Shown here one piece after another: positions 46,883 to 56,266 of a stretch of DNA of 64,000 nucleotides; position 1 is the stretch's first letter, and each line of letters begins with the position of its first letter. The DNA is taken from assembly GCF_003334815.1 (NCBI RefSeq), contig NZ_QOWO01000024.1. One strand, written 5' to 3'. This stretch comes from Escherichia coli. GTDB taxonomy: Bacteria > Pseudomonadota > Gammaproteobacteria > Enterobacterales > Enterobacteriaceae. The notes beneath the pieces are model-generated. The model was not told where the DNA came from, ran no database searches, and worked only from the letters and a program-made list of their open reading frames with translations. A program made the position numbers and the translations under genes.

Positions 46883-46988
46883 AATTGAAAAGTCCAGGCT
46901 GCAAAGTCTGGGCTTTTGTCGTATTAGGGCACGGTAAAGTTTGGCTGTGCCCGTAAAAAATGGCTGGCTATACACAAGGAATGTGGCA

Positions 46989-53835
<6,847 letters not shown>

Positions 53836-55485
53836 GTGAACTGGCGCAGAATCGTCTGGCTATTGGCGTTGGTTACTCTGCCAACACTTGCGGAGGAGAC
53901 GCCGTTACAACTGGTGCTGCGCGGTGCGCAGCACGATCAACTGTATCAGCTGTCGTCATCAGGCGTGACCAAAGTCTCAGCATTACCTGACTCGCTCACC
54001 ACGCCGTTAGGGAGTTTGTGGAAACTGTATGTTTACGCCTGGCTGGAGGATACCCATCAACCGGAGCAGCCCTACCAGTGTCGCGGAAACTCCCCGGAAG
54101 AGGTTTATTGTTGTCAGGCTGGGGAGAGCATAACGCGCGATACCGCGCTGGTACGTTCCTGTGGGCTCTATTTTGCGCCGCAGCGGTTGCATATTGGCGC
54201 AGATGTGTGGGGGCAATACTGGCAACAGCGTCAGGCACCTGCGTGGTTAGCGTCTCTGACTACGCTGAAGCCAGAAACCTCGGTAACGGTTAAATCGCTG
54301 CTTGATTCATTAGCGACGTTACCCGCGCAAAACAAAGCTCAGGAAGTCTTACTGGATGTGGTGCTGGACGAGGCGAAAATCGGTGTCGCATCCATGCTCG
54401 GTAGTCGGGTACGGGTGAAAACCTGGAGCTGGTTTGCCGATGATAAACAGGAAATCCGTCAGGGTGGTTTTGCTGGCTGGTTAACCGATGGTACACCGCT
54501 GTGGGTTACTGGCAGTGGCACCAGCAAAACGGTACTAACCCGTTATGCGACGGTGCTTAATCGGGTTTTGCCAGTGCCGACGCAGGTTGCCAGTGGGCAA
54601 TGTGTAGAGGTGGAGCTGTTTGCCCGCTATCCGCTGAAGAAAATCACAGCGGAAAAGAGTACGACGGCAGTAAATCCCGGCGTACTTAATGGGCGCTATC
54701 GTGTGACGTTTACTAATGGTAACCACATTACGTTTGTCAGCCACGGTGAGACGACCTTACTGAGCGAAAAGGGCAAACTGAAATTGCAGTCGCATCTCGA
54801 TCGTGAAGAGTACGTTGCCAGAGTTCTGGATCGCGAGGCGAAAAGTACGCCCCCTGAGGCAGCGAAAGCCATGACCGTGGCGATTCGCACTTTTTTACAG
54901 CAAAACGCCAATCGGGAAGGCGATTGCCTGACCATCCCCGACAGCAGCGCCACGCAGCGTGTTTCTGCTTCGCCAGCGACCACGGGGGCGCGAACGATGA
55001 CCGCCTGGACGCAGGATCTCATCTATGCAGGCGATCCGGTTCATTATCATGGCAGTCGCGCTACCGAAGGGACACTTTTCTGGCGGCAAGCCACGGCCCA
55101 GGCGGGGCAGGGAGAGCGTTACGATCAGATACTCGCGTTTGCTTATCCCGACAACAGTCTTAGCCGCTGGGGAGCGCCACGCTCAACCTGCCAGTTATTA
55201 CCCAAAGCGAAAGCCTGGCTGGCGAAAAAAATGCCGCAGTGGCGGCGTATATTACAAGCTGAGACGGGGTACAACGAACCAGACGTGTTTGCGGTTTGCC
55301 GTTTAGTCTCAGGTTTCCCCTATACCGATCGGCAGCAGAAACGGCTGTTTATTCGTAACTTCTTTACGCTTCAGGATCGGCTGGATTTAACCCATGAGTA
55401 TCTGCACCTGGCCTTTGATGGTTATCCCACCGGGCTTGATGAGAACTATATCGAAACGCTGACCCGACAATTATTAATGGACTAA
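53836..55485 (+). CDS. yfaQ: YfaQ-family exported protein of unknown function (C-terminal HExxH motif)
   Basis: 549-aa ORF starting at GTG immediately after yfaS stop; signal peptide MNWRRIVWLLALVTLPTLA; HEYLH at residues 520-524. Confidence 0.75.
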   Translation: MNWRRIVWLLALVTLPTLAEETPLQLVLRGAQHDQLYQLSSSGVTKVSALPDSLTTPLGSLWKLYVYAWLEDTHQPEQPYQCRGNSPEEVYCCQAGESITRDTALVRSCGLYFAPQRLHIGADVWGQYWQQRQAPAWLASLTTLKPETSVTVKSLLDSLATLPAQNKAQEVLLDVVLDEAKIGVASMLGSRVRVKTWSWFADDKQEIRQGGFAGWLTDGTPLWVTGSGTSKTVLTRYATVLNRVLPVPTQVASGQCVEVELFARYPLKKITAEKSTTAVNPGVLNGRYRVTFTNGNHITFVSHGETTLLSEKGKLKLQSHLDREEYVARVLDREAKSTPPEAAKAMTVAIRTFLQQNANREGDCLTIPDSSATQRVSASPATTGARTMTAWTQDLIYAGDPVHYHGSRATEGTLFWRQATAQAGQGERYDQILAFAYPDNSLSRWGAPRSTCQLLPKAKAWLAKKMPQWRRILQAETGYNEPDVFAVCRLVSGFPYTDRQQKRLFIRNFFTLQDRLDLTHEYLHLAFDGYPTGLDENYIETLTRQLLMD

Positions 55486-55489
55486 TGCT

Positions 55490-56266
55490 ATGCGAAAGAT
55501 TTTTCTTCCGTTGTTACTGGTGGCGCTTTCGCCTGTCGCTCACAGTGAAGGTGTGCAGGAAGTCGAGATTGATGCACCGCTCTCAGGCTGGCATCCGGCA
55601 GAGGGCGAAGATGCCAGTTTTTCACAATCGATCAATTACCCGGCGTCGTCCGTCAACATGGCAGATGATCAAAATATCTCAGCGCAGATCCGCGGCAAAA
55701 TAAAGAATTATGCTGCGGCGGGTAAAGTTCAGCAGGGCCGGCTGGTGGTCAACGGTGCCAGTATGCCGCAGAGAATTGAATCCGATGGTTCATTTGCACG
55801 CCCTTATATTTTCACTGAAGGCAGCAACAGCGTGCAGGTCATCAGCCCGGATGGGCAAAGCCGACAAAAAATGCAGTTTTACTCAACGCCGGGTACAGGA
55901 ACGATTCGTGCACGTTTACGGCTGGTTCTCTCGTGGGATACGGACAATACCGACCTCGACCTTCACGTTGTTACGCCCGATGGCGAACACGCCTGGTACG
56001 GTAACACCGTGCTGAAAAACAGTGGTGCACTGGATATGGATGTCACGACGGGGTACGGACCCGAGATTTTCGCCATGCCCGCGCCAATTCACGGGCGCTA
56101 TCAGGTGTATATCAACTACTATGGTGGGCGCAGCGAAACGGAATTAACCACCGCCCAACTGACGCTGATCACCGATGAAGGATCGGTCAATGAGAAACAG
56201 GAAACATTTATTGTACCGATGCGTAATGCTGGCGAGCTGACGCTGGTGAAAAGTTTTGACTGGTGA
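55490..56266 (+). CDS. yfaP: YfaP-family exported protein of unknown function
   Basis: 258-aa ORF 4 nt after yfaQ stop; signal peptide MRKIFLPLLLVALSPVAHS. Confidence 0.75.
   Translation: MRKIFLPLLLVALSPVAHSEGVQEVEIDAPLSGWHPAEGEDASFSQSINYPASSVNMADDQNISAQIRGKIKNYAAAGKVQQGRLVVNGASMPQRIESDGSFARPYIFTEGSNSVQVISPDGQSRQKMQFYSTPGTGTIRARLRLVLSWDTDNTDLDLHVVTPDGEHAWYGNTVLKNSGALDMDVTTGYGPEIFAMPAPIHGRYQVYINYYGGRSETELTTAQLTLITDEGSVNEKQETFIVPMRNAGELTLVKSFDW

Follow-up and report, generated by a model that had tools for sequence, protein, structure and literature searches.

The closest described counterpart of the protein considered here is MagE (PA4488) of Pseudomonas aeruginosa, which is encoded in the mag operon next to the alpha-2-macroglobulin (A2M) MagD. 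Deletion of magE lowers the abundance of MagD and is accompanied by higher-mass, apparently unprocessed MagD forms, and the authors of that work suggested that MagE might assist in cleaving the MagD signal peptide or serve as a chaperone (PMC5764988). The mag operon as a whole shields P. aeruginosa from peptidoglycan-targeting type VI secretion system (T6SS) effectors (PMC12663445). MagE has so far been described as a protein of unknown role affecting MagD processing, without a reported protease domain. For Escherichia coli, a 2025 mSystems paper on y-genes described YfaQ as “bipartite,” with a penicillin-binding protein (PBP)-like and a SpoIID-like part and residues covered up to 445 (PMC12282094). 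Here, we analyzed a stretch of E. coli DNA of 64,000 nucleotides (contig NZ_QOWO01000024.1 of assembly GCF_003334815.1; hereafter, the window) that carries the yfaQ gene. A sequence-only reading of the window had pointed to an HExxH motif, HEYLH, near the C-terminus of YfaQ. The follow-up analysis indicated, with moderate confidence, that HEYLH is the active-site motif of a minimal metallopeptidase domain of zincin type, previously not annotated, which spans about 100 residues at the C-terminus of YfaQ/MagE. The features that carry this result are as follows.

53836..55485, plus strand: yfaQ coding sequence, 549 amino acids, with a GTG start abutting the yfaS stop codon (open reading frame list and translation).
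55171..55482, plus strand: predicted C-terminal minimal zincin-fold domain, residues 446–549.
55393..55407, plus strand: HEYLH (H520, E521, and H524), the proposed zinc ligands and general-base Glu.

The assignment of MagE to the YfaQ family was made because of its annotation (YfaQ and COG5445) and the operon structure, in which the same gene order DUF2138-MagC-A2M-YfaQ-YfaP is found; the peptide encoded by the published MagE primer was not found among the retrieved YfaQ homologues. In literature searches for YfaQ, DUF2300, PA4488, COG5445, and MagE, neither zinc, nor a metallopeptidase, nor HExxH was found to be mentioned for this protein, and a zincin module is absent from the published descriptions and from the database names of the protein (“DUF2300/YfaQ family”).

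The sequence-only reading had placed HEYLH at residues 520–524, and both the coordinates and the context it quoted proved to be exact: window positions 55393–55407 are CATGAGTATCTGCAC, which translates to H-E-Y-L-H, within the context LTHEYLHLAFDGYPTGLDENYIE. It had also rated a chance HExxH in YfaQ as a low-percent event, in agreement with the 0.8% of composition-preserving shuffles of the protein that contained the motif (0.009 expected). Across the 49 window open reading frames (ORFs) of at least 200 amino acids, 0.8 occurrences of HExxH were expected and 1 was observed, so that the bare motif is not beyond chance at the level of the window, and the earlier judgment that it is not conclusive alone was upheld. 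The significance of HEYLH therefore comes from conservation and fold context and not from the bare motif.

Homologues were collected by a word-indexed search (1168) and by an exhaustive HMMER search over cluster representatives (291), and conservation was assessed on an alignment of 65 full-length YfaQ orthologues with 27–67% identity. Only 21 of the 549 columns were invariant, and H520, E521, and H524 were among them. The conservation of these residues, which the sequence-only reading had proposed to check, thus extended to all 65 orthologues down to 27% identity, and HE[YFW]xH was present in 164/164 retrieved homologues whose sequence extends that far, with the Pseudomonas homologues also retaining HExxH. 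All 16 sequences with an identity of 53% or more share QDRLD-THEYLHLAF without a change. The window-level count of one motif against 0.8 expected speaks for a chance occurrence without function; this explanation is, however, contradicted by the invariance of the motif at 27–67% identity, where so few columns are invariant, and by its position in a zincin fold, and we consider it hardly credible.

The fold was predicted with an AlphaFold2 model built from the 65-sequence alignment (mean predicted local distance difference test score, pLDDT, 95.1; predicted template modeling score, pTM, 0.92). In the model, the 104 residues around the motif take a zincin fold, and H520 and H524 lie one turn apart on a single α-helix (residues 512–526), the placement that had been put forward as a check together with the motif. 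The domain comprises a helix (456–474), three strands (486–489, 496–498, and 503–506), the HExxH helix, a short helix (531–534), and a last helix (536–548). The predicted order of these elements in residues 446–549 is that of a canonical minimal zincin catalytic domain.

Structural comparison of the C-terminal domain returned M32 carboxypeptidases, M1 aminopeptidases, Spartan/SprT, proabylysin, projannalysin, and selecase, as well as NleC, Wss1, ArdC, YbeY-type proteins, BlaR1, M48/BepA, deuterolysin, and others. Peptidases made up the large majority of these matches, and the closest structural relatives were enzymes cutting proteins or peptides of L-amino acids. In the AFDB50 database, the first 48 matches belonged to the YfaQ family itself (named DUF2300, YfaQ, or “secreted protein”), and the first match outside the family was an M48 metallopeptidase. 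At the sequence level, a single-sequence phmmer search of the PDB with YfaQ gave no match, and the sole match of the domain profile to the whole PDB was the minigluzincin selecase, with a non-significant E value of 0.15; in that alignment, HExxH fell on HExxH and the preceding strand was aligned also. Searches with individual family members against Pfam gave weak matches, and these were to zincin families only (M78, SprT-like, and DUF6782).

A zincin requires a further zinc ligand, and candidates for it were found behind the motif.

55441..55455, plus strand: E536 (55441–55443) and E540 (55453–55455), candidate gluzincin-type third zinc ligand at the start of the last helix.
55423..55425, plus strand: Y530, candidate third ligand or transition-state helper.

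The sequence-only reading had suggested that acidic residues following the motif could supply the third ligand, and these are indeed conserved: position 536 is Glu in 62 of the 65 orthologues (Asp in two, Gln in one), position 540 is always acidic (59 Glu, 6 Asp), and both are on helix 536–548, after the HExxH helix. Position 530, six residues past the second His, H524, is His in 54/65 and Tyr in 6/65 orthologues, Tyr being the residue of the E. coli clade. In the most distant members of the YfaQ family, the His is shifted by one position relative to 530. The HMMER alignment places a selecase His (H80) one position off YfaQ residue 530. The interchange of His and Tyr at 530 would fit a stabilizer of the transition state no less well than a metal ligand.

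In the model, an invariant HExxH on a helix of a zincin fold is thus followed, one helix further on, by conserved acidic residues. The computational checks proposed with the motif (conservation, helix placement, and fold) were all positive. In the proposed mechanism, H520 and H524 would bind Zn2+, by extrapolation from the zincin family, and the third ligand would be either a Glu of the following helix (E540 or E536) or residue 530. The zinc-bound water would be activated by E521 as the general base, the substrate peptide may run along the edge strand 503–506, and His or Tyr at 530 might alternatively stabilize the transition state. The C-terminal domain is rather probably a working metallopeptidase.

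Two points weigh against this assignment. Non-peptidases are present among the zincin fold matches (the YbeY RNase, ArdC, and an HExxH oxygenase domain); in addition, the third metal ligand of minigluzincins is a His (PMC6925264), and if residue 530 served as the third ligand in the same way, the Tyr of E. coli would make the site atypical. The latter difference at Y530 would also fit a non-catalytic zincin-like module, in which the metal site would be structural or the domain would be a pseudoenzyme that binds peptides and anchors YfaQ on the A2M complex or on wall peptides. Such a module would be in line with the minimal size of the domain, whose lower subdomain is no more than one or two helices, and the effect of MagE on MagD stability could be explained by a chaperone or scaffold as well. 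However, pseudo-zincins usually lose the Glu, whereas the general-base E521 is invariant in 65/65 sequences together with both His, and we regard a non-catalytic module as improbable. The non-peptidase fold matches, in turn, could suggest a different kind of enzyme, for instance a nuclease like YbeY, an HExxH oxygenase, or some other metal-dependent hydrolase. Most of the matches are peptidases, though, YfaQ is a secreted protein with invariant Cys pairs, and its partner domains and operon are envelope-directed, so that this explanation appears very unlikely.

An additional feature was observed in five distant homologues (P0139, P0143, P0151, P0154, and P0156), which have tails past the last helix with a G-x-Y-E-like motif (GTYESF, GSYVDERN, GEYETR, GTYEDN, and PYETID); a tail of this kind is absent from E. 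coli YfaQ. As in the zymogens of minigluzincins, these C-terminal tails could fill the active-site cleft.

The window ORF is E. coli yfaQ, with 100% identity to many complete genomes, the annotation “YfaQ family protein,” and the same length as K-12 b2226; the gene was found in 5382 of 5426 complete E. coli genomes (~99%). Besides the zincin domain, the following parts were distinguished.

53836..53892, plus strand: predicted Sec signal peptide, about residues 1–19 (...TLPTLA|EE; from the sequence, with the cleavage site predicted).
53905..54570, plus strand: N-terminal PBP/class D β-lactamase-like domain, about residues 24–245.
54583..55170, plus strand: SpoIID-like domain, about residues 250–445.
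55189..55299, plus strand: invariant Cys pair C452 (55189–55191) and C488 (55297–55299), inside the zincin domain, each in 65/65 orthologues.

Residues 1–20 have low pLDDT in the model, a Sec signal peptide has been reported for both YfaQ (PMC12282094) and MagE (PMC3735191), and no hydrophobic segments were found in the YfaQ sequence beyond the signal peptide. In the N-terminal domain, S60-x-x-K63, S108-C109, and K195-T196 are invariant. The middle domain has the SpoIID fold with its conserved Glu: E334 (54835–54837), an invariant residue, falls on the Glu of the SpoIID “VVASEM” segment in the alignment. The NCBIfam scan of YfaQ gave only a sub-threshold SpoIID match (17.7 bits against a cut-off of 83.3). 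YfaQ is a three-module periplasmic protein that consists, from N- to C-terminus, of PBP/class D β-lactamase-like, SpoIID-like, and zincin domains. Judging by their motifs (SxxK and KT in the former, the Glu in the latter), the first two modules, both of types directed at the cell wall, appear to be catalytically intact.

This layout disagrees with the Pfam description of a “tandem DUF2300,” which is also given in the RefSeq product name for K-12. The two DUF2300 matches cover residues 84–205 and 412–532 (window 54085–54450 and 55069–55431), and no similarity between the two stretches was detected by BLASTP or by profile–profile comparison with hhalign (probability 0.1%). They belong to different folds: the first is within the PBP-like domain, and the second spans the zincin together with the end of the SpoIID-like domain. 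The supposed repeat seems to be a model artefact, and its name conceals three distinct enzyme-like folds.

The C452-C488 pair probably forms a disulfide, as far as its conservation indicates, which is consistent with a periplasmic protein. Further Cys residues in invariant pairs are present in the N-terminal domain (C82, C92, C93, and C109). The invariant pairs suggest disulfides and thereby a periplasmic location; this conflicts with the cytoplasmic fractionation reported for P. aeruginosa MagE.

In the window, the gene order is gyrA, yfaA (DUF2138), yfaT (DUF1175/MagC), yfaS, yfaQ, and yfaP, followed by ato genes on the opposite strand. The neighbors of yfaQ in this cluster are as follows.

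46941..48677, plus strand: yfaA (DUF2138, MagB family), with the true start probably near 46989 (NCBIfam PRK11410, 9e-274, residues 17–578; K-12 annotation).
48647..49297, plus strand: yfaT (DUF1175/MagC family), with the true start probably near 48674 (Pfam DUF1175, 1.2e-57; NLPC_P60, 0.002, weak; K-12 length).
49216..53835, plus strand: yfaS, type II A2M homologue, an intact ORF of 1539 amino acids directly 5' of yfaQ (ORF list).
55490..56266, plus strand: yfaP (DUF2135/YfaP_C, MagF family), directly 3' of yfaQ (ORF, translation, and K-12 annotation).

The ORFs of yfaA and yfaT overlap by 31 nt and those of yfaT and yfaS by 82 nt; yfaS and yfaQ are contiguous, and 4 nt separate yfaQ from yfaP. 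Five loci of metagenomic or genomic origin, with YfaQ homologues of 30–37% identity, retain the order A2M-YfaQ-YfaP and, where the contig permits, the full DUF2138-MagC-A2M-YfaQ-YfaP cassette with abutting or overlapping genes. The overlapping or abutting genes in the window and in the distant loci suggest translational coupling. A YfaP_C gene was present 3' of the yfaQ homologues in loci L001–L006, and the C-terminal 600–700 amino acids of YfaS matched the partial A2M genes 5' of distant yfaQ homologues with 25–26% identity (E values 1e-38 and 2e-61). YfaQ is an obligate genomic partner of type II A2M. Where the A2Ms beside distant YfaQ homologues (L001:3-2087 and L002:1-1815) have the thioester motif G-C-V-E-Q, the window YfaS has P-W-G-G-V-I-N; thus, the YfaQ-linked A2Ms are not uniformly thioester-less.

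The cluster yfaA-yfaT-yfaS-yfaQ-yfaP is the known type II A2M operon, equivalent to magB-F of magABCDEF in P. aeruginosa, and the cluster was likewise seen in K-12. The sequence-only reading had seen in it a small envelope proteolysis module made of a metallopeptidase-like protein, an A2M-like trap, and a putative cysteine hydrolase. The trap was recognized correctly, since YfaS is a type II A2M homologue, and YfaT is NlpC/P60-like, although it had already been described as a member of the MagC family. The module itself was drawn too narrowly: the operon has links to peptidoglycan, and YfaQ also carries the PBP/class D-like and SpoIID-like domains.

The substrate is the least certain step of the proposed function. 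The zincin may process or mature its A2M partner, YfaS/MagD, which we put forward as the leading, though tentative, possibility. This guess was made because magE deletion alters MagD, the synteny is obligate, and cleavage is what A2Ms are made for. Several observations are unfavorable to it. MagE and MagD formed no stable complex and did not co-purify, and MagE was found in the cytoplasmic fraction (PMC5764988, PMC3735191). The cells of a delta-yfaQ E. coli strain from a deletion collection are wider, and its phenotype profile groups with those of mepS, mepK, nlpI, and other envelope mutants (PMC12282094). In K-12 MG1655, yfaS is a pseudogene, unlike the intact yfaS of the window. If the deletion collection is K-12-derived, as we assume, yfaS is a pseudogene there as well, and the cell-width phenotype is independent of an intact A2M.

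The same phenotype, together with the fusion of the zincin to two wall-directed modules, is the reason for considering cell-wall peptides or a wall-attached protein as the second substrate candidate, which we hold to be rather unlikely. The zincin would then be a cell-wall peptidase in cis that trims stem peptides, cross-links, or protein attached to the wall and thereby lets the SpoIID-like domain cut the glycan strand, since SpoIID relatives require peptide-free glycan; the link with A2M would be indirect, with the wall being repaired or opened for the Mag/Yfa complex, a role that has been proposed for PBP1c in the case of type I A2M. Besides the intact catalytic motifs of the two peptidoglycan-directed folds, a role of this kind is favored by the NlpC/P60-like neighbor YfaT/MagC and by the protection that the mag operon provides against peptidoglycan-targeting T6SS effectors (PMC12663445). 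However, the closest structural relatives of the domain cut proteins or peptides of L-amino acids, and the K-12 phenotype could be explained by the other two domains alone. Moreover, the peptidoglycan metallopeptidases known to us have LAS, M23, M15, M14, or amidase folds and are not HExxH zincins. The remaining probability falls to a non-catalytic or other role of the zincin domain.

A bolder version of A2M processing would make YfaQ/MagE a damage-gated “convertase” of the bacterial A2M system, in which the zincin cuts and activates A2M (MagD 165 to 100 kDa); we consider it improbable. The PBP-like and SpoIID-like modules would detect free stem peptides and naked glycan as signs of peptidoglycan state and control the zincin. 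The logic would resemble that of BlaR1, where class D-like ligand sensing is coupled to a gluzincin, but in a soluble periplasmic protein. If true, the convertase would parallel, in bacteria, the activation of complement and TEP proteins by proteolysis.

The invariant zincin site offers a concrete hypothesis for what MagE/YfaQ does in the A2M system of bacteria that can be tested by a single mutation, in a protein encoded by nearly all complete E. coli genomes and having a Pseudomonas homologue, MagE, linked to virulence. It bears on the question of what processes MagD and why magE is required, and on how the type II A2M operon is tied to the cell wall and to protection from T6SS effectors that target peptidoglycan.

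Comparison with the known zincin families showed the greatest likeness to minigluzincins (selecase MJ1213, proabylysin, and projannalysin) and the related SprT/Wss1 proteins, which likewise consist of approximately 100–110 residues with a backing helix, a three-stranded sheet, the HExxH helix, and a C-terminal helix or helices. The YfaQ family consensus also has a His at position +6 of the motif, near the third-His ligand position of minigluzincins (PMC6925264). Nevertheless, minigluzincins are stand-alone proteins, whereas the YfaQ domain is fused behind the PBP-like and SpoIID-like domains; the sequence similarity is not significant, E. coli YfaQ has Tyr instead of His at the putative third-ligand position, and the YfaQ domain has the conserved Glu on the next helix and the invariant Cys pair. 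The YfaQ domain departs from the minigluzincin pattern of a stand-alone, soluble protein with a third His: the size fits, but the domain is fused and the window protein has the Tyr.

The M48 and M56 gluzincins (BepA, HtpX-like proteins, and BlaR1/MecR1) are HExxH enzymes associated with the envelope, as is YfaQ. BlaR1/MecR1 also pair a zincin with a class D β-lactamase-like domain, and the BlaR1 chain 8exp_A was matched by both ends of YfaQ. However, YfaQ has no transmembrane helices, its domain order is the reverse, and it contains an additional SpoIID-like domain; the distance from the second His to the candidate Glu is 11–15 residues, compared with approximately 36 in MecR1 (HE205LSH to E245). 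With both fold types present but in reversed order, without membrane segments and without a sequence match, YfaQ does not conform to the BlaR1/MecR1 (M56) sensor-transducers, in which a membrane-embedded gluzincin domain precedes an extracellular class D-like sensor domain. A metzincin (HExxHxxGxxH and a Met-turn) was dismissed because position 527 is Phe, Leu, or Tyr and never Gly, and only 25 residues follow the motif, all of them helical, which leaves no space for a Met-turn. The reading of “TGLDENY” as the aspzincin motif GTxDxxYG, in which the Asp is an invariant ligand, was not retained either, with D535 being Asp in only 48/65 orthologues (Asn in 14) and Y538 being variable.

The resemblance to SpoIID/LytB lytic transglycosylases concerns the middle domain of YfaQ and not the HExxH, with a match below the NCBIfam cut-off, and we know of no SpoIID relative that carries a zincin. 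On the basis of these comparisons, the YfaQ zincin domain appears to resemble the smallest zincins (minigluzincins, SprT/Wss1, and the cores of M48/M56), with demonstrable sequence membership in none of them. The YfaQ zincin represents a new family-level member of a well-known kind of enzyme rather than a new kind of system.
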